Shown: one piece after another, positions 40,289 through 63,961 of the stretch | Position numbering within the stretch: position 1 is the stretch's first letter | Layout: every line of letters starts with the position of its first letter | Sequence record: OQ939939 | Source of the DNA: Escherichia phage SUT_E1620 | Direction: 5' to 3' (one strand) | Length of the DNA: 64,000 nucleotides | Translations under genes and position numbers: made by a program | Notes under the pieces: model-generated | What the model was told of the DNA's origin: nothing | What the model saw: the letters and a program-made list of their open reading frames with translations, nothing else | Databases searched by the model: none

Positions 40289-43151
40289 GCATCTGACGTT
40301 CTTCGTCTGTCATAAACTTAACTGGAATCGGCATACATTCGATCTTACAGTAAGTTCTGTACCAGTCCACAATCTTTTCCGTATCCAGATCTTTACCGAT
40401 ACCCATCATGCCAAGATACATACGAGCATATTTTGGGTTAGCACTCTGACCTGTCTTAAGGAAGAAATCCTTCTTCTTATTCTTAAGAGCTTCGATAAAC
40501 GGTTTGATTGTTACATTTGAACACTTCTTAATATCTTCCCAGAACATGTCGTGCATCTTATGGAAGAATGCAGCTCTATCGTTTGGTTTATCCTTGATAT
40601 ACTGTTCAACGTGTTCCACTGTTACATCTTTAATAGAATCCAGATGATAATAGCGAACCAGAAGTAACTTGGCTTCATAGGCATCTGCATGACGTGGTGC
40701 GCAATATTCAGGAGTTGAGTGCAAAATAGCTTTGATTCGCTCTTCTGTATACTCTTTGCCTGCACCTTCGATAGTCCCCCAGCTTTCACTGAAGATATCA
40801 ATAGTTGCACCTTGATCGAGAAGATAATAACGCAAAGTACTGGTATAGTTTCTAGATTCCAGCTCACGACGGCGTGCGTACAGTTGCTGAGCTAACTCAA
40901 TCCAACCCTCGTCAATATTATATTGCTCGGAACCCGCAGAGAATCCACTCGTAGATTTATCAATAAAATAATAAATGTTCTGAGCACCACGGTCGCGCCT
41001 GATTGCTTGAAAACGCATGTTTGGCGCTTGGTTTGAGGTTCTAGTGATTACGAATACGTTATCAAAATAGTTAAAGTCAACACCACTCGTTACAGATGGA
41101 CTACATAACAAACAATCAATCTGTTGATCAATTAGCTCATTAGTTGTATAATCCAGAATACGTCGGATATCTACATCAGACGTAGAGTTTGAGTGAATTT
41201 CTTTAACTAACGCACCAGTATTACGACGTAATGCCATTCCTTTTTCATTCAGTTCATCCGGTCCACAGTCAGATACTAGGATTGACTTCTCACCCATCTC
41301 TAGAGATGTTTGAAGTGCAACCCAAATACTGGATTCGTCAGGGAATTCATAAGCGTGAGCTTTCGCCAGCATTTTACGGTGATGATTATAGAATGCAACT
41401 GGTTTATCAAAATCAATCAAAGAACCATAGGCTTCAATCGTTTCTGCACTGATATCACCATCAGATAAGATAACAGTTTTAGCAGTAATAAGGATATCAC
41501 GAAGAACCTGAATACATTCACGACGGTTTTTAACAACCGGAGCGAATAACAGATCATTCATTACTGCGTCACATTCATCAATAAAGATCGTATCAATCTG
41601 ACCCACAAAGCTCTTGAACTTATGGATAGAGTGAATAGTTGAAGACATACGATCAATAGCACCACGTTTGAAGTTCAGCATATCAACTGACTTATCATAC
41701 TGGCCAGCACCGAATTTCTTCGCGTTAGAAGATACAAGTGCCCTAGTATTTGTGATTGCAATAAAGTTTCCTGGAAGAACACCTGCATCTAGCCACTTAG
41801 TTACTGCTGTAGTTTTACCCGTACCAAGACTTGCCTTAACAAATGTTAAATGTCCTTTTGGGGGTACAATGTTAATCTTCAGGTATGGAACTTCGGGAGG
41901 TGAATCTGTATCCAGACGTTTTAATGGTACGCCTTTTAAGTTGGGCGGAATCTCACGTTTGGAGTTATTTACAAATGCTTTGAGAGCCTGCTTACGACCG
42001 TTATTAAAGTAATCTTGAATATTACGACTATTATCTTTAGTTGCAATATATTCAGATAAAGCTGGTTTAATCTCACGTTCTAACCACGTAAAGTCAACAC
42101 CATCTTCTAACGCTCTGTGATAAAGTTTTGGGATAATACGCAGGTACACTCCATCCTCAGCTTCTTCTAGCTCGCTGATGGTTTCTTCCACTTTATCAGA
42201 TGCAGCCTTCTTGCCTTTAATTTGGTCAAGTAAGGAGTAGAATTCTTCTTTGAACTCACCTCTAGTTGTTTCAAAGTCAACTAGGTTATTAGGTAGATTC
42301 ACCTTCGAACCCTTAACATACACAAGACGTGGTTTATTCTCCGCTTTAAACGGATCGACTATACCATCATCAAATAGGGGATCTGCAAAATAGTGAAGCT
42401 GAACAGAAGAATAATAAGCTAAGTCAGCAATATCAAAGCCATACTTTTGCTTACTACTGTCATTTATAGATGTAAATAAGAACTTTAACTGTCCCTGCGT
42501 TACCTTGACATTAGATTCTAGCATTAAGTGCATTCGGATACCTGGTTTTAATCCAGCCGAAGACGATGCATGGGCAATAAACCCTGCATCAAGAGGAAAC
42601 ATATCCTCACTAATACTATTCAACATCTTAATAATATGACGTGCCATGCCAACAAGATTAAACTTGTCATAGCCCCCAGTATCTACAATACCATCCACGT
42701 CCATAGCAATAATATGACTAGGATTGGATACGTTAAAGTTTCCTCTGGTACGACGCACATTATCTTTTGGAGCTAAACATTTACCACGAATAGCTACAAT
42801 ATGCGGGTCTTTGGTAAGACGACGCATGATAGGTAACATTTCAGCAAGGTTTTGCGGGTCAAGTTCTTCAAGTACATCAAATTTGAAGGGCATGGAAGCT
42901 GGTTTACCTTCTGGATGCTCTTTAGAGAATCGCTTTGCAAAGGTGTAATCTTCCACTTTGATCTCTTTCCAGATGCCAGTGGCTTTATCTCTGGAAAATC
43001 CTGCGTGACCTTGTAGGATTGAGAACACAACAATACTCCTATGTTGGTTATTCGGATATCTTTCTTTAGGACTATTCAAAAGAATAGAACAACTATTACT
43101 ACCATTTACACAAACATTAATCATCATCAAGCAGTATGAATAAGTTATCAT
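40239..43151 (-). CDS. origin-binding-protein-like SF2 helicase
   Basis: Walker A SLGTGKTT and Walker B IFIDECD; probable true start is a GTG about 41 codons into the track ORF (near 43028), preceded by AGGAG. Confidence 0.55.
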   Translation of the reverse strand: MITYSYCLMMINVCVNGSNSCSILLNSPKERYPNNQHRSIVVFSILQGHAGFSRDKATGIWKEIKVEDYTFAKRFSKEHPEGKPASMPFKFDVLEELDPQNLAEMLPIMRRLTKDPHIVAIRGKCLAPKDNVRRTRGNFNVSNPSHIIAMDVDGIVDTGGYDKFNLVGMARHIIKMLNSISEDMFPLDAGFIAHASSSAGLKPGIRMHLMLESNVKVTQGQLKFLFTSINDSSKQKYGFDIADLAYYSSVQLHYFADPLFDDGIVDPFKAENKPRLVYVKGSKVNLPNNLVDFETTRGEFKEEFYSLLDQIKGKKAASDKVEETISELEEAEDGVYLRIIPKLYHRALEDGVDFTWLEREIKPALSEYIATKDNSRNIQDYFNNGRKQALKAFVNNSKREIPPNLKGVPLKRLDTDSPPEVPYLKINIVPPKGHLTFVKASLGTGKTTAVTKWLDAGVLPGNFIAITNTRALVSSNAKKFGAGQYDKSVDMLNFKRGAIDRMSSTIHSIHKFKSFVGQIDTIFIDECDAVMNDLLFAPVVKNRRECIQVLRDILITAKTVILSDGDISAETIEAYGSLIDFDKPVAFYNHHRKMLAKAHAYEFPDESSIWVALQTSLEMGEKSILVSDCGPDELNEKGMALRRNTGALVKEIHSNSTSDVDIRRILDYTTNELIDQQIDCLLCSPSVTSGVDFNYFDNVFVITRTSNQAPNMRFQAIRRDRGAQNIYYFIDKSTSGFSAGSEQYNIDEGWIELAQQLYARRRELESRNYTSTLRYYLLDQGATIDIFSESWGTIEGAGKEYTEERIKAILHSTPEYCAPRHADAYEAKLLLVRYYHLDSIKDVTVEHVEQYIKDKPNDRAAFFHKMHDMFWEDIKKCSNVTIKPFIEALKNKKKDFFLKTGQSANPKYARMYLGMMGIGKDLDTEKIVDWYRTYCKIECMPIPVKFMTDEERQMHEEALAELGARNDSEE

Positions 43152-43522
43152 ACCTCAGTGCTGCGCTCTCTTAACTCTTATCCAGATCAGAACCTAGGTC
43201 ATTGGCCGCTAAGCCGATTCTGATTGCCCTCACTATCCTATTGGTAGGTGGCTACTGGACGTGTCACCATTCGCTGCTCTTTTCGTTCGCACCCCCATAT
43301 AAAGCTCTGCCTATATAACGAGCTAAATATGCACGGTTTGGATTTACCTTTCCGAATTCAGGGTACGCAGATCACTTAATTGATAATTAACTAATGCAGT
43401 ATAAACACTAGTAATAGTTAAAACAACCCTTAATGGGGCAGCCTAACTGTTCCGTATTGCGGATTGTAAACAAGAAAAATTAGCAAAATCAATTTTTACT
43501 AATGTCTCTCATTTATGGGAAT

Positions 43523-59523: not shown

Positions 59524-60225
59524 ATGAAATTCAAGCCCTTTGGTATGCTGGACATTGAATCTCTAGGTACTCCAGGAAATTGCGGTACTACTCATATTGC
59601 AATGCCTTCTTTCGCTTTTGTAGCGATGCACGGAATTGATAAAGATCCTGATCTGGTATTCGTTACTCTAGACGTTCAAGATCAGCTTAATGCGGGTGCT
59701 AAGGTAACTGCCTCTACTATTGCATTCTGGATGGATCAAGCTAAAAACAGTCCATCTGCGCTCCATATTATGGAGGCTCTAAATGGTCGTAATCCTAAAC
59801 TGATTGCCTTCCGTGATGGTAAGCATCACTGCACTAATGACGTAGGCTCTAATTATGCTGCCTTCTCTATGGCTCAGAACATTATGGAATTGTCTCTAGG
59901 AGATAATGCTCTGTATTACGGCAATGGCCCAGAGTTTGATATGACAATCTACTCTGCAAATACGTTCCATGCCGGAACCAATGAAGAAATAGTTCCGTGG
60001 AAATTCTGGAACTTAGGTAACGTTCGATCTTTCCGTAATCAGTGGATGCAAGCTGGTTATAGCTATAAAGATCTAGAAGCCGAAGGTGCTAGCTGGGCAA
60101 AAGCTAAAATGGAAAAAATGGACACCATTCGTTATGGAATCTACCCTGTGAAGCATGATCCAGCATTCGATGCTTTAGTTGAAAGTTATTGTGTAGCCGT
60201 CATGATCGAAAAAATCAAAATTTGA
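59524..60225 (+). CDS. putative DEDDh-family 3'-5' exonuclease
   Basis: 233 aa; N-terminal MLDIESLG (Exo I D-x-E) and C-terminal HDPAFDA (Exo III H-x4-D). Confidence 0.45.
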   Translation: MKFKPFGMLDIESLGTPGNCGTTHIAMPSFAFVAMHGIDKDPDLVFVTLDVQDQLNAGAKVTASTIAFWMDQAKNSPSALHIMEALNGRNPKLIAFRDGKHHCTNDVGSNYAAFSMAQNIMELSLGDNALYYGNGPEFDMTIYSANTFHAGTNEEIVPWKFWNLGNVRSFRNQWMQAGYSYKDLEAEGASWAKAKMEKMDTIRYGIYPVKHDPAFDALVESYCVAVMIEKIKI

Positions 60226-60295: not shown

Positions 60296-60478
60296 ATGCC
60301 AGTATCTAAAAACGTCCGTAAAAATGGTAAAGTAGCAAAACGTAACCTGGGTCTACGTCGTATGGCTGAACGTCAGTCCGGCATCCAGAAAATCTTTAAC
60401 GTACTGAATCGCGCCAATCCGAATATTGATAACAGTTCTGATACTGTTCTGCGCACTCTGCTCGCAATCGGTCTGTAA
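60296..60478 (+). CDS. small basic protein
   Basis: 60 aa; stop codon sits in the loop of a terminator hairpin. Confidence 0.35.
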   Translation: MPVSKNVRKNGKVAKRNLGLRRMAERQSGIQKIFNVLNRANPNIDNSSDTVLRTLLAIGL

Positions 60479-60489
60479 TAGACCGTTTT
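60468..60489 (+). terminator. intrinsic terminator overlapping stop codon of 60-aa gene
   Basis: CGGTCT-GTAAT-AGACCG hairpin followed by T5. Confidence 0.6.
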
Positions 60490-60529: not shown

Positions 60530-61171
60530 ATGATGACTACTCGTATCTCTAAAACTCGTGCTCTGGCAACTATCAAGTCTCTGGAAGCTAAAATCCGTAA
60601 AGCTACTGAACAACAGCTTTTGATTGCTGTTGGTGAAGGTAAAGACAAGAATCAAGTTGTCGTTGGTGCTGCAATCGAAGTAGATGCTCTGTCTACTCGT
60701 ATTAAAACTGATTTCCAGTCTCTGCTGGATATGATGACCCAGCGTGATCATCTGAAAGCAGCGCTGATCAAGAGCAATGCTGAAACTGTTGTAGAGATCG
60801 GTTCCCGCTCTATGACTGTTGCGGAAGCAATCGAAGCTAAGCGTTCTATGGAACTCAAAGCTCAGTTGCTGGCTAACATGCGTAAGCAGTTCCATGCTGC
60901 TACTGTTAAGTTTAACACTCAGAAGGCTCAGTTTGATGCCAAGTATGAGCGTTTGCAGGATACCATGGCTACCCGCGATAAGAAGACTTCCGAGGATGAA
61001 GTTAAGATGCAGCTTAACCTGCTGGAACTCAAGAACACTCCGTTCCTGATCGATCCGCTGGAGCTGGAAAAGCTGATCAAGCAACACGACGAAGAATACC
61101 AGGACTTTGCAACCAACGTTGACTTTGTTCTGTCTGAGTCCAACGCCTCTACTTTTATCGAAGTAGAGTAA
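60530..61171 (+). CDS. hypothetical coiled-coil protein
   Basis: 213 aa; host-like codon usage. Confidence 0.45.
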   Translation: MMTTRISKTRALATIKSLEAKIRKATEQQLLIAVGEGKDKNQVVVGAAIEVDALSTRIKTDFQSLLDMMTQRDHLKAALIKSNAETVVEIGSRSMTVAEAIEAKRSMELKAQLLANMRKQFHAATVKFNTQKAQFDAKYERLQDTMATRDKKTSEDEVKMQLNLLELKNTPFLIDPLELEKLIKQHDEEYQDFATNVDFVLSESNASTFIEVE

Positions 61172-61180
61172 TAATTTAAA

Positions 61181-61198
61181 AGACTAGTAAATCGGTAG
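61181..61198 (+). repeat. left arm of 17-bp inverted repeat bounding an ORF-free element
   Basis: AGACTAGTAAATCGGTA; reverse complement of right arm is AGACTAGTAAACCGATA (15/17). Confidence 0.6.
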
Positions 61199-61520
61199 AC
61201 GAAAGCCCAAGCATCTTACCTCGCAGCAGCGGTTGAAATACGAGGTTAAATAAGACCGCTGACCATACTATAAGGTATAATCTATTGGAGATTATGTTTA
61301 TTACATCAGACATTTAATCTGACACGTAAAAACAAAAGGTCGTTGGTAGTACCAACACAACTTCAAAGATCAACGCTCAAGTATGAAAGCTGAAAAGTTA
61401 AAAGCACTCAAACTTCTAACCTTCTAAAGCTAAAAGATGCAAAGTATTCGTTGATGATTCAAACCCTAGATCAAAGGTACATGGCTCATAAGATATGGCC
61501 TGTGGCGCCTCTAGGCTGTT

Positions 61521-61537
61521 TATCGGTTTACTAGTCT
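61521..61537 (+). repeat. right arm of 17-bp inverted repeat
   Basis: TATCGGTTTACTAGTCT. Confidence 0.6.
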
Positions 61538-61555: not shown

Positions 61556-61584
61556 TTGCTAATTAGTTTAGTTTTCTGTATAAT
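61556..61584 (+). promoter_or_regulatory. T5-type early promoter
   Basis: TTGCTA-17-TATAAT. Confidence 0.55.
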
Positions 61585-61614: not shown

Positions 61615-61932
61615 ATGACTTTACATATTTTGTTTGATGATGTACGTGACTTAAATGGAATGGATATCATCATCAGAAACCCTGATGTAGCGTACGAAAT
61701 GCTCTATCAGTTACAACTCCAGGGTAATTATCTTTATTTAGATAATGACATGGGTAGTAAAGTAGAAGGCCACCATTTGTTAAGTCGTATCCTAGAAGAT
61801 AAAGATTTGTACCCTAAAAAGGTGGTTTTAGTCACCAGCAATTCTGTTGCTGCAGAAAATATGCGCCAACAGTTAAAAACAGCTGGTTATCAAGAAAACC
61901 CCAATCGTATTGAGTACGATTGGCAGGAGTAA
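61615..61932 (+). CDS. hypothetical protein with receiver-domain-like pattern
   Basis: 105 aa; ILFDDVRD ... YLDNDMG ... VVLVTSNS ... K pattern loosely resembles CheY-like receiver fold; own promoter. Confidence 0.3.
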   Translation: MTLHILFDDVRDLNGMDIIIRNPDVAYEMLYQLQLQGNYLYLDNDMGSKVEGHHLLSRILEDKDLYPKKVVLVTSNSVAAENMRQQLKTAGYQENPNRIEYDWQE

Positions 61933-61936
61933 ATAA

Positions 61937-62461
61937 ATGGAAATAACCCAGGAAAACCTATTATCCTTATTTCACTACAATAGTGAGGAAGGTAGATTGT
62001 ACTGGAAAGCTAATCCCAATAAAGCCCCTGCATGGAATGCCAAATGGGCGGATAAGCCTGCTGGGGCTAAAGATGGGAAATCAATAGTAGTGTCCATTGA
62101 TAATAAATCATACAGACACCATAGATTAGTATTTTTATATCATAAAGGATACTTACCAGTACAAGTTGATCATAAAGATAGGACTAGGCATGACACTAAT
62201 CCTTTCTGCGATAAAATAGAAAATCTCAGAGACGCCACTCATTCACAAAATAATGCTAATAAAGATATTGGGAAGGCCAATACTTCTGGCTATAAAAATG
62301 TGTATAAAACACATCAAGGGTGGAGGGTTATTGTAAAGAAAGATAAAAAGCCTATAGAGGGCGGAACCTTTCTTAGTCTAAAAGAAGCGGTAGATGTAGC
62401 AAATGATTTAAGGTTTGACCTATTCGGTGAATTTGCACTATACCAGCCGTATAAGGAGTGA
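61937..62461 (+). CDS. HNH homing endonuclease with AP2-like domain
   Basis: 174 aa; SYRHHRLVFLYHKGYLPVQVDHKDRTRHDTN HNH motif; C-terminal YKNVYKTHQGWRV AP2-like. Confidence 0.65.
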   Translation: MEITQENLLSLFHYNSEEGRLYWKANPNKAPAWNAKWADKPAGAKDGKSIVVSIDNKSYRHHRLVFLYHKGYLPVQVDHKDRTRHDTNPFCDKIENLRDATHSQNNANKDIGKANTSGYKNVYKTHQGWRVIVKKDKKPIEGGTFLSLKEAVDVANDLRFDLFGEFALYQPYKE

Positions 62462-62984: not shown

Positions 62985-63155
62985 TGAAATCAGTTGTAAT
63001 TATTGGTGTTAATACTCGTGGTATCCGTACTACGAAAACAGTTAAAACTACTAACGTTGCTGAAATTACTACAAACCCTAAGAAGTTTGATTTCGCTAAA
63101 GTCTCGGCAGTTATGACAGAACAATCTTTTAACCAAGCACTGGGAATTAAATAAT
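62985..63155 (+). CDS. small hypothetical protein (about 56 aa), absent from ORF track
   Basis: ATG preceded by GAGAGGAAG and a T5-type promoter; below the 60-aa track cutoff; coordinates approximate. Confidence 0.3.
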
Positions 63156-63597
63156 GGAAGAGAATATTCTAGATGTTTTGCGTAGGGCTTTGCAGGAATC
63201 TAAGGTTGATGGTTCTGATAAAGAAGTAGCTAAAAGCTACCAGACCATAATCGGAGATCTTCAGCGTGTTGATAAAGACTTCATTACTTCTGAACAGTTT
63301 GTATCTTATCTAAAAGCTCAACTGAAAAGCATTAATCAGACGAAAGCTAAACTTCACGGTCAAGACCTTGATAATTATAGCTTGCAGTCTGCTCAGTATG
63401 AGTATATACTGAACAAATGGCTACAACAGTATCTGCCGCCTCAGTTATCTGATTCTGAGATTCGCAAATACTTTGCAGAATTAGTTAAGTTGAACCCTGG
63501 GATTACAAAAGGTATGCTGATGAAAGCGATTAAGGAAGAGTTTCCTGGTCGTTACGACGGTGGCATTGCTGCTCAGGTTGCTGGCGAATTTAATTAA
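63154..63597 (+). CDS. GatB/YqeY-domain protein
   Basis: 147 aa; C-terminal GITKGMLMKAIKEEFPGRYDGGIAAQVAGEF resembles YqeY/GatB C-terminal domain. Confidence 0.45.
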   Translation: MEENILDVLRRALQESKVDGSDKEVAKSYQTIIGDLQRVDKDFITSEQFVSYLKAQLKSINQTKAKLHGQDLDNYSLQSAQYEYILNKWLQQYLPPQLSDSEIRKYFAELVKLNPGITKGMLMKAIKEEFPGRYDGGIAAQVAGEFN

Positions 63598-63634: not shown

Positions 63635-63889
63635 AGATTCATAAATTAGAGAACAGCGAGCCGATTACGCTGAGTGAGTTTAGTGATTCCTACTAGGATA
63701 GCTATTCCACTGAATAGAGTCGGTGAGTTGGAGACTAGTAAGTACTCTGAGAGAGGCTACGAGCTAACGCTTATTGCTATTGATAGGGAACTGAAAATCT
63801 GCGGAAAACTCGGGAGCTGTCCCGAAATCTCGTAAACTCTTCTCTAGTTTATGTTAGTGGGGTGTCGAACTGACTTATGTGATAACACT

Positions 63890-63961
63890 GCCGTCCTAGT
63901 ATAAACGGTAATATCAAACCGTAACTGGTGGAAGATGCAGGTTCGAATCCTGCGGTCGGAA
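63890..63961 (+). ncRNA. tRNA-like element (canonical T-arm, incomplete cloverleaf)
   Basis: GCAGG-TTCGAAT-CCTGC T-arm, U8-like and GG D-loop-like positions; acceptor pairs only 5 of 7; no canonical anticodon arm found by hand. Confidence 0.25.

Follow-up and report, generated by a model that had tools for sequence, protein, structure and literature searches.

We describe here a structured RNA encoded in a 64,000-nucleotide (nt) stretch of Escherichia phage SUT_E1620 (sequence record OQ939939; this whole stretch is called the window in what follows), and we conclude that this 357-nt element is one half of an ancient and widespread module composed of a protein gene and an RNA. The original prediction, made from the letters of the window, had pointed to a region free of open reading frames (ORFs) and bounded by a 17-bp inverted repeat, for which three readings were offered: a structured non-coding RNA, a miniature inverted-repeat transposable element (MITE) or an origin-like element. 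The observation is confirmed, and the leading one of these readings, a structured RNA made from the + strand, is strongly supported, whereas the other two did not stand. The association of this RNA with a gene, which is the main point, had been missed. As far as can be told from our searches, the RNA belongs to a widespread and undescribed family, and thus represents a new class.

The window comes from a T5-like Epseptimavirus, and its element is 100% identical to that of phage SE19. Searches with blastn located it at 478 places in 478 records (437 of them spanning 80% of the query or more), without any change of syntenic position, so that the presence/absence polymorphism expected of a mobile element is not seen among T5-like genomes. 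In about 440 genomes of the Markadamsvirinae it is a single-copy element kept at 92-100% identity. Weak blastn matches were also obtained in Pseudomonas phage phiPsa397, in a 145-kb Klebsiella phage and in ‘Salmonella phage 41’, and because all of them fell just downstream of homologs of the 213-amino-acid (aa) protein encoded upstream of the element, further loci were gathered around this protein. They comprise annotated phage loci (Vequintavirinae, Otagovirus, Mccorquodalevirinae, Ermolyevavirinae, Herelleviridae and Audreyjarvisvirus), 80 IMG/VR contigs and 80 bacterial genomes. Every collected locus shows an unannotated gap of about 350-1060 nt after the gene, with one common architecture. 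Since a sequence-only nhmmer profile (91 matches on the + strand, 0 on the − strand) was too insensitive, a covariance model of the 3′ domain of the RNA was used instead, trained on 25 sequences that included no T5-like, rV5-like or Pectobacterium-phage members. With the filters off, this model matched positions 61459-61518 of the + strand (28.8 bits, E = 6e-6) as the sole significant match in the window, the next best candidate on the two strands of the 64 kb scoring 14.9 bits. The window copy shares the remaining hallmarks of the family: a closing helix, P1, with the common junction (CG followed by A on one side, GC followed by UG on the other), a pseudoknot, PK1, starting 16-22 nt past P1, heptad repeats upstream of the 3′ domain, and, within the latter, AAAYCC, the P3 helix, an internal hairpin and GGCUG. 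It also lies on the same strand as, and downstream of, a phrog_1491 gene, with the stop at 61171 and P1 from 61181.

The module is by no means restricted to phages. At least 183 bacterial species have the partner gene, the Solibacillus and Brevibacillus loci do carry the RNA, and the module was found in apparently most of the Lysinibacillus species sampled; in Lysinibacillus and in Bacillus paralicheniformis the cassette sits among ordinary chromosomal genes with no prophage signature. The genome of Paenibacillus xylaniclasticus holds two copies of the module (loci L219 and L224), the first of them directly followed by a ‘skipping-rope’ small RNA (L219 5019-5147; RF02924, 54 bits). The Rfam/Infernal search that the original prediction had proposed was run with Rfam 15, at the gathering threshold and at E up to 10, and returned nothing at the element in the window, in 20 phage loci or in 14 bacterial loci. 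The literature searched held no description of the RNA either; an earlier description elsewhere, including in a 2026 preprint on the coevolution of non-coding RNAs and proteins, is possible.

The linkage between gene and RNA is strict in both directions, in phages as in bacteria. Seen from the protein side, the RNA lies downstream on the + strand in effectively all of the 88 phage and 77 bacterial loci, presence being called by a match to the 3′ domain or by a manually recognised architecture. Usually, 0-90 nt separate the RNA from the gene on the same strand. Seen from the RNA side, a scan of IMG/VR with an RNA-only signature yielded 80 loci, of which 53 lacked both helix and gene and were fortuitous; all 17 loci having a genuine P1, the junction and enough upstream DNA carried the gene upstream, and 5 more had the gene together with a bulged helix. 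An RNA without the gene was not found among these 80 loci, the contig of L164 (junction helix present, gene undetected) ending 426 nt upstream. In two divergent contigs the 3′ domain occurs some 700-830 nt past the gene instead of about 300 nt (L076 3817-3886 and L078 3951-4021), a spacing that suggests either an insertion between gene and RNA or a far larger variable region.

The partner protein belongs to a conserved family of helical proteins of 205-215 aa. An AlphaFold model of the protein, made with database homologs as input, is confident (predicted local distance difference test score of 90) and shows long helical hairpins and small beta elements. No Pfam or NCBIfam family was matched, and the sole relative of known structure is 3kdq, an uncharacterised protein from Corynebacterium. 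The ‘tail fiber’ label attached to PHROG 1491 is not credible, because the gene sits among T5 genes for replication, nucleotide metabolism and tRNAs.

The evidence for a folded RNA comes above all from P1, whose arms in the window (AGACTAGTAAATCGGTAGACG, 61181-61201, and TGTTTATCGGTTTACTAGTCT, 61517-61537) form 21 uninterrupted pairs, four of them G-U. The inverted repeat is therefore 21 bp long against the 17 bp first given, far beyond chance. The positions reported for the shorter arms were exact, and their two differences do behave as had been proposed, giving U-G and G-U pairs on the + strand and A-C mismatches on the − strand. Across the family, P1 measures 11-21 bp (21 bp in the T5-like copy, 19-21 bp in rV5-like phages and 11-17 bp in many others) and has a different sequence in nearly every lineage, with its pairing retained; only the junction is constant, the 5′ arm ending in CG before an A and the 3′ arm starting with UG after a GC. 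Among 39 distinct junction-anchored helices, 86.6% of the cells are paired versus 55.5% in shuffles, a percentage inflated by the fact that the arms were picked by pairing, the junction anchor itself having been set by sequence. Covariation reaches 0.825, compared with 0.237 in shuffles and 0.09-0.25 in slid registers, and both sides have changed at 12 of the 14 pairs. By our estimate, a 14-bp helix exactly at the junction would arise by chance with a probability of about 3e-4 per locus.

The same helix reveals which strand is at work: leaving out the invariant innermost G-U, its pairs include 68 G-U versus 13 A-C combinations, and for this reason the functional strand is the + strand and the molecule is RNA. 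Between T5 and SUT_E1620, nucleotide identity is 95.8% in the RNA and 88.0% in the adjacent gene. Within the T5-like clade, variable sites amount to 0.216 per nt in an internal insert versus at most 0.09 elsewhere, with none in J5, the segment directly inside P1, and stem substitutions are compensatory (61182 G>A with 61536 C>T; 61310 A>C with 61318 T>G). Conservation tracks base-pairing rather than codons. Covariation, a check that the original prediction had suggested, was found in four helices, P1, P3 and the pseudoknots PK2 and PK1, and together with the excess of G-U over A-C and the better conservation of the RNA than of the gene it bears out the structured RNA.

Inside P1 the molecule is ornate. 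The segment regarded earlier as pseudoknot-capable is a real H-type pseudoknot, PK1, whose first stem begins 16-22 nt past P1 in 35 of 40 distinct RNAs and whose second stem differs in almost every lineage (CAGCGG/CCGCUG here; UUAGCCAC/GUGGCUAA, UGCUGGCA/UGCCAGCA and UGAUAGUU/AACUAUCA elsewhere). A second, long-range pseudoknot, PK2, is created by the pairing of J5 (6-9 nt) with J3, the segment directly preceding the 3′ strand of P3, since this pairing crosses P3. Its mean duplex energy is −7.43 kcal/mol for cognate versus −3.77 kcal/mol for non-cognate partners, the observed mean was reached by 0 of 5000 permutations, and the cognate partner often ranked 1st of 44. The 3′ domain keeps a fixed order throughout the family: AAAYCC, the P3 helix, an internal hairpin with a conserved loop, and GGC. 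P3 has zero broken pairs among 35 sequences and is 98.4% paired in an independent set; RNAalifold on this domain gave P3 alone, and the internal hairpin and PK2 were spotted by eye and then tested. Upstream of the domain run 8-12 heptad units of about GUUCAAAG, whose autocorrelation, taken over a fixed 110 nt, is 0.46, 0.42 and 0.38 at lags of 7, 14 and 21 versus about 0.21 off phase. Family members measure 230-400 nt overall, of which about 60 nt are near-invariant. The coordinates in the window are collected in Table 1.

Table 1. Parts of the RNA, its partner gene and the adjoining promoter, numbered along the window.
Feature	Position	Strand	Remarks
Partner gene	60530-61171	+	213 aa, all-helical; T5.085 homolog, PHROG 1491, annotated ‘tail fiber protein’
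Structured RNA, whole	61181-61537	+	357 nt, from P1 outer end to P1 outer end
P1 5′ strand	61181-61201	+	21 nt; last bases are the family-wide CG, then A
PK2 5′ strand (J5, GCCCA)	61205-61209	+	Family-level pairing solid; exact pairs in this copy tentative
PK1, H-type pseudoknot	61218-61261	+	S1 61218-61223 with 61241-61246; S2 61227-61234 with 61254-61261
Variable insert	61262-61358	+	Lineage-specific hairpins; hairpin 61306-61322 and palindrome 61342-61356
A-rich tract, 7-nt period	61359-61459	+	Units such as UUCAAAG, UGAAAGC, UAAAAGC
Conserved 3′ domain	61460-61516	+	CAAACC motif; P3 61465-61470 with 61510-61515
3′ domain internal hairpin	61479-61486 with 61497-61503	+	Loop CAUAAGAUAU at 61487-61496
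PK2 3′ strand	about 61501-61506	+	Within 3′ domain
P1 3′ strand	61517-61537	+	21 nt; starts UG directly after conserved GGC
Promoter of next transcription unit (boundary)	61556-61584	+	TTGCTA-17-TATAAT; serves cREC_REC gene 61615-61932

Most of the remaining details noticed earlier hold, some of them in part. The element does lie between the end of a gene and the next promoter, and its interior is free of ORFs reaching 60 aa, a 45-aa frame on the − strand (61176-61313) being the longest. The palindrome GTTGGTA-G-TACCAAC is present where it had been located, and it is perfect in just 3 of 22 distinct T5-like sequences. The region had been called GC-richer than its flanks, which is true of its two end domains only (0.46-0.47), while the element as a whole has a GC content of 0.387, compared with 0.452 in the upstream gene, 0.344 downstream and 0.401 in the window. 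A third copy of a short core, AGACTAGTAA, does exist, at 63732-63741 rather than at about 63743, and is coincidental: it is a single extra 10-mer match where 0.25 are expected by chance, in a segment absent from T5 itself. The link drawn from it to the ORF-free region around 63743, which corresponds to T5 ‘rnaX’, finds no support, as no hallmark of the family occurs in rnaX. The corresponding gap of 363 bp in T5 (43142-43504) bears no feature in its reference record.

Regarding the surroundings of the module, same-strand tRNA genes occur within 2.5 kb in about 30 of 49 phage loci, and in about 17 the RNA is itself immediately followed by one, while elsewhere an intrinsic terminator stands directly 3′ of the RNA. 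A complete tRNA-Thr(UGU) is even contained in the variable insert of one locus (L052, 3229-3305), and the same tRNA-Thr species begins a few nt past the RNA in three others, rV5-like or Klebsiella-phage-like (L005 3174, L006 3128 and L008 3514). In locus L216 a sigma-70-type promoter lies between gene and RNA. The T5-like neighbours on the + strand encode an Rv2179c-like 3′-5′ exoribonuclease (59524-60225), a cREC_REC cyclic-phosphate processing receiver protein (61615-61932) and a YqeY-like protein (63154-63597). A terminator-like hairpin with a T-run is found at 60469-60485 (+), between a 60-aa ORF and the partner gene, and because it precedes the gene, gene and RNA may need read-through or an unrecognised promoter.

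Several further observations concern mobile or RNA-related genes near the module. An HNH_3 homing-endonuclease ORF (61937-62461, +) separates the cREC gene from a cell-wall hydrolase gene in the window and is absent in T5 and HMD-P2, and in phages falkor, bastian and 1586 a homing endonuclease is inserted exactly past the P1 3′ arm, leaving the RNA intact. A metagenomic phage contig has a group I intron upstream of the module (L080 912-1188; RF00028, 64.8 bits), and genes for RlaP and a Hen1-type methyltransferase, which belong to RNA repair, are encoded about 6 kb from a Paenibacillus chromosomal copy (L215 15073-16630), a proximity that may be coincidental. Farther downstream in the window, the 5′ part of the homolog of the 719-nt T5 rnaX contains a tRNA-like sequence (63890-63961, +) scoring 29.3 bits, exactly the Rfam tRNA threshold, which ARAGORN did not call. 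Between a P16-17-type promoter and this homolog lie about 190 nt (63640-63830, +) that are absent in T5 and hold a 53-aa ORF starting with GTG.

How could such a module work? The results above establish the fold, the strand and the linkage, and they make the element the T5-like member of a widespread family of 230-400-nt RNAs; we consider it probable that it acts as a stable RNA together with the upstream protein. The RNA would share a transcript with the protein gene or, in some phages, be driven by a promoter of its own, and would form the 3′-terminal part of the unit, followed in most lineages by a terminator or tRNA genes and in T5-like phages by the next promoter. It would then be freed from the transcript and persist, through cleavage by RNase P in those loci that have a tRNA behind the RNA, and perhaps through cleavage of the 21-bp P1 by RNase III in T5-like phages. 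The stems cleaved by RNase III, such as those flanking the rRNAs or found in T7 early RNA, offer about 20 bp or more of near-continuous double-stranded RNA. RNA and upstream protein would work together as a ribonucleoprotein, since this best explains their strict two-way linkage. The folded body may be the double-pseudoknotted core, and the heptad tract may offer a platform with many sites, one every 7 nt, possibly read by one protomer per heptad if the likeness of AAG-N4 to the registers of HutP and TRAP is a guide, with the acidity of the protein as a caveat. The target process may be tRNA or translation, as suggested by the phage modules that lie in or beside tRNA islands. A fuller version of this proposal, which we advance only tentatively, would see a new ornate RNA class, an obligate ribonucleoprotein with a new protein family, heptads read by an oligomer of the partner and a function touching tRNA or translation, conserved in T5 as well as in phages of Bacillus, Lactococcus, Vibrio and Pseudomonas, and housed in Bacillota chromosomes.

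Several points weigh against this explanation. We infer the physical association of RNA and protein solely from their strict genetic linkage, and the protein is mildly acidic (median pI, or isoelectric point, of 5.9), with some six conserved basic residues, located in its N-terminal half, which is untypical of an RNA-coating protein. Transcript data for any member were not found in the literature searched (T5 stable RNAs and transcriptomes). Processing by RNase III would not be general, because P1 measures 11-17 bp outside the T5-like and rV5-like phages. The pairing of PK2 is interrupted in the T5-like copy and overlaps the internal hairpin. Finally, z-scores of the minimum free energy are alike on both strands (−5.9 and −5.1), and therefore folding energy alone cannot decide the strand.

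Among the other explanations, the RNA might be a machine on its own, either a homo-oligomer like ROOL and GOLLD or a heptad decoy or sponge that titrates a host factor, with the protein aiding its folding, stability or expression. It matches the niche of ROOL and GOLLD (phage-encoded, near tRNA islands, with pseudoknots and a linker able to hold a tRNA), the partner protein is not basic, and the RNA of L216 has its own promoter. We regard this as unlikely, given a strict two-way gene linkage that is foreign to ROOL and GOLLD, for which no protein partner is known (PMC12286853), and a length of 230-400 nt, much smaller than that of those cage-forming RNAs. The chances are similarly slim for a cis-acting structured 3′ untranslated region that stabilises, processes or autoregulates the mRNA of the 213-aa gene, the protein binding its own heptads and the RNA playing no role in trans. 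The constant position 3′ of the same gene, usually at 0-90 nt and often followed by a terminator, would fit, as would the compact unit suggested by the hairpin at 60469-60485. Two pseudoknots and about 60 near-invariant nt in an RNA of 230-400 nt nevertheless exceed the needs of known 3′ stabilisers, the RNA is better conserved than the gene it would serve, and it has its own promoter in L216 and lies about 700-830 nt from the gene in L076 and L078. Less likely still is a conflict module, toxin-antitoxin-like or dedicated to abortive infection or anti-defence, in which the repeat RNA neutralises the protein or is sensed by it, following the logic of type III toxin-antitoxin systems. Those systems have tandem RNA repeats of 34-45 nt upstream of an endoribonuclease toxin gene; membership among them was rejected, because here the repeats are 7 nt long and come after the gene, and the partner protein forms a helical bundle that has no relative among nucleases. 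A conflict role would agree with a cassette that comprises two genes, stands free, ends in its own terminator, is dispersed in Bacillota chromosomes among unrelated genes and also occurs in lytic phages, and with the short direct repeats of the RNA; the tRNA region of T5 holds anti-defence genes (10.1101/2023.03.15.532788). Nonetheless, the SP15 module (ORF83) is outside the mapped anti-defence fragments ORF71-75, and the presence of the module in most Lysinibacillus sampled suggests a housekeeping rather than a patchy role. Some further candidates were discarded: Rad, the retron anti-defence protein of T5-like phages, is another gene (ORF75, a 189-aa TOPRIM protein), whereas the partner gene is ORF83; a retron msr-msd is contradicted by the lack of any reverse transcriptase among the neighbours; and lnc001 and lnc002, abundant long non-coding RNAs of phage K, have no protein, no motifs and no 7-nt period that would make them homologs.

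Three more ideas have very little in their favour, the first of them being effectively refuted and the second refuted. That the RNA is a highly divergent member of a universal family, namely transfer-messenger RNA (tmRNA) or RNase P RNA, is very improbable: its long end-to-end helix followed by a CG, then AAA, and an H-type pseudoknot evoke the P2/PK1 region of tmRNA, and in size and tRNA setting it is reminiscent of RNase P RNA, yet a tRNA-like domain and a tag reading frame are both missing, ARAGORN called neither tRNA nor tmRNA in the window, no Rfam model of tmRNA or RNase P matched at E up to 10, and the helix topology is unlike P4/P2 of RNase P. A DNA-level element, whether a MITE or an iteron replication origin, is scarcely credible any longer, even if its terminal inverted repeat, short A-rich direct repeats and freedom from ORFs had made it attractive. 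A MITE does not accord with the single copy found in each of the 478 records, a fixed synteny and arms that covary instead of being conserved, nor an origin with strand-asymmetric pairing and pseudoknots, because pseudoknot covariation is meaningless for duplex DNA and the G-U pairs exist on one strand only; moreover, the 7-nt period is not that of a helical repeat. Equally hard to sustain is the idea of small unannotated proteins encoded in the region. A few GenBank records do call short ‘hypothetical proteins’ in the gap, and a 61-aa ORF has been called over a Paenibacillus copy, but across 51 members of the family the longest frame has a median length of 31 aa on the + strand and 34 aa on the − strand, and no frame is conserved.

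It is striking that a classic phage such as T5 should have kept a 357-nt RNA gap unannotated in its reference record, and the module would also correct the ‘tail fiber’ mis-annotation in hundreds of phage genomes. Classes of large structured RNA are, to our knowledge, very few (RNase P RNA, tmRNA, OLE, GOLLD, ROOL, raiA and HEARO), and a true new class with a dedicated partner protein would be an unusually tractable addition to them: T5, phages of Salmonella and E. coli, and the culturable Lysinibacillus, Brevibacillus and Bacillus paralicheniformis all offer it, its small size suits it for chemical probing by selective 2′-hydroxyl acylation analysed by primer extension (SHAPE) and for cryo-electron microscopy, and it has an obvious partner for pull-down. 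In that case, the old question of the non-tRNA cargo of the tRNA islands of large phages would become directly testable. If the ribonucleoprotein reading is true, an unrecognised and widespread cellular and viral particle would emerge, of a standing comparable to Y RNA/Rsr or OLE/Oap.

Comparison with known systems places the RNA near several of them and within none. One of them is T5 rnaX (misc_RNA T5s08, NC_005859 40848-41566), which is likewise ORF-free and driven by a promoter, and which belongs to the same early/tRNA region, about 2 kb farther downstream; its annotation as ‘stable RNA with unknown functions’ indicates that T5 makes stable non-tRNA RNAs. It differs in lacking every hallmark of the family, and the 10-mer shared in the window is missing from the rnaX of T5. 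The likeness to tmRNA is only local, consisting of a long helix that joins the 5′ part to the 3′ part and has CG, AAA and an H-type pseudoknot next to it on the 5′ side (P2/PK1). The resemblance in sequence, ACG followed by AAAGCCCAAGCAU against GCG followed by AAACCCAAGGAGCAU in the E. coli tmRNA, is confined to the T5-like lineage, and the family RNA, undetected as tmRNA by ARAGORN or Rfam, has no acceptor/T-arm domain, no tag ORF and no ring of PK2-PK4.

Another parallel is offered by two RNA-binding systems based on repeats: TRAP recognises 11 G/UAG triplets separated by 2-3-nt spacers, and HutP recognises NAG triplets with 4-nt spacers in a 7-nt register. The family RNA also has purine triplets (AAG) at a fixed short spacing, with a period of 7 nt that equals the HutP register, and this spacing suggests, by analogy, the pattern expected for an oligomeric protein with one triplet per protomer. 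In contrast with those systems, the partner protein has neither fold, and the tract belongs to a large folded RNA rather than to a leader. Bacterial Y RNA and Rsr, like other modules that unite a stable RNA with a protein, are similar in that the ends of the RNA pair in a long stem, an internal module can be tRNA-like and the RNA is encoded beside its protein, and the T5-like module shares with them a neighbourhood of RNA metabolism (exoribonuclease, cREC); the differences are a threefold larger RNA, no Ro60/TROVE gene nearby and no match to the Rfam Y RNA models. Finally, ROOL and GOLLD are large ornate RNAs of phages and prophages, known as Rfam families and from cryo-electron microscopy (PMC12286853). 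Like them, the RNA described here is phage-encoded in the vicinity of tRNA islands and has several pseudoknots and a poorly conserved linker that sometimes houses a tRNA, as in L052. It differs in matching no Rfam model in the window, the 20 phage loci or the 14 bacterial loci and in being two to three times smaller, in being obligately tied to one protein gene, in carrying a 7-nt tract, and in living as a free-standing, non-prophage module in the chromosomes of Bacillota.

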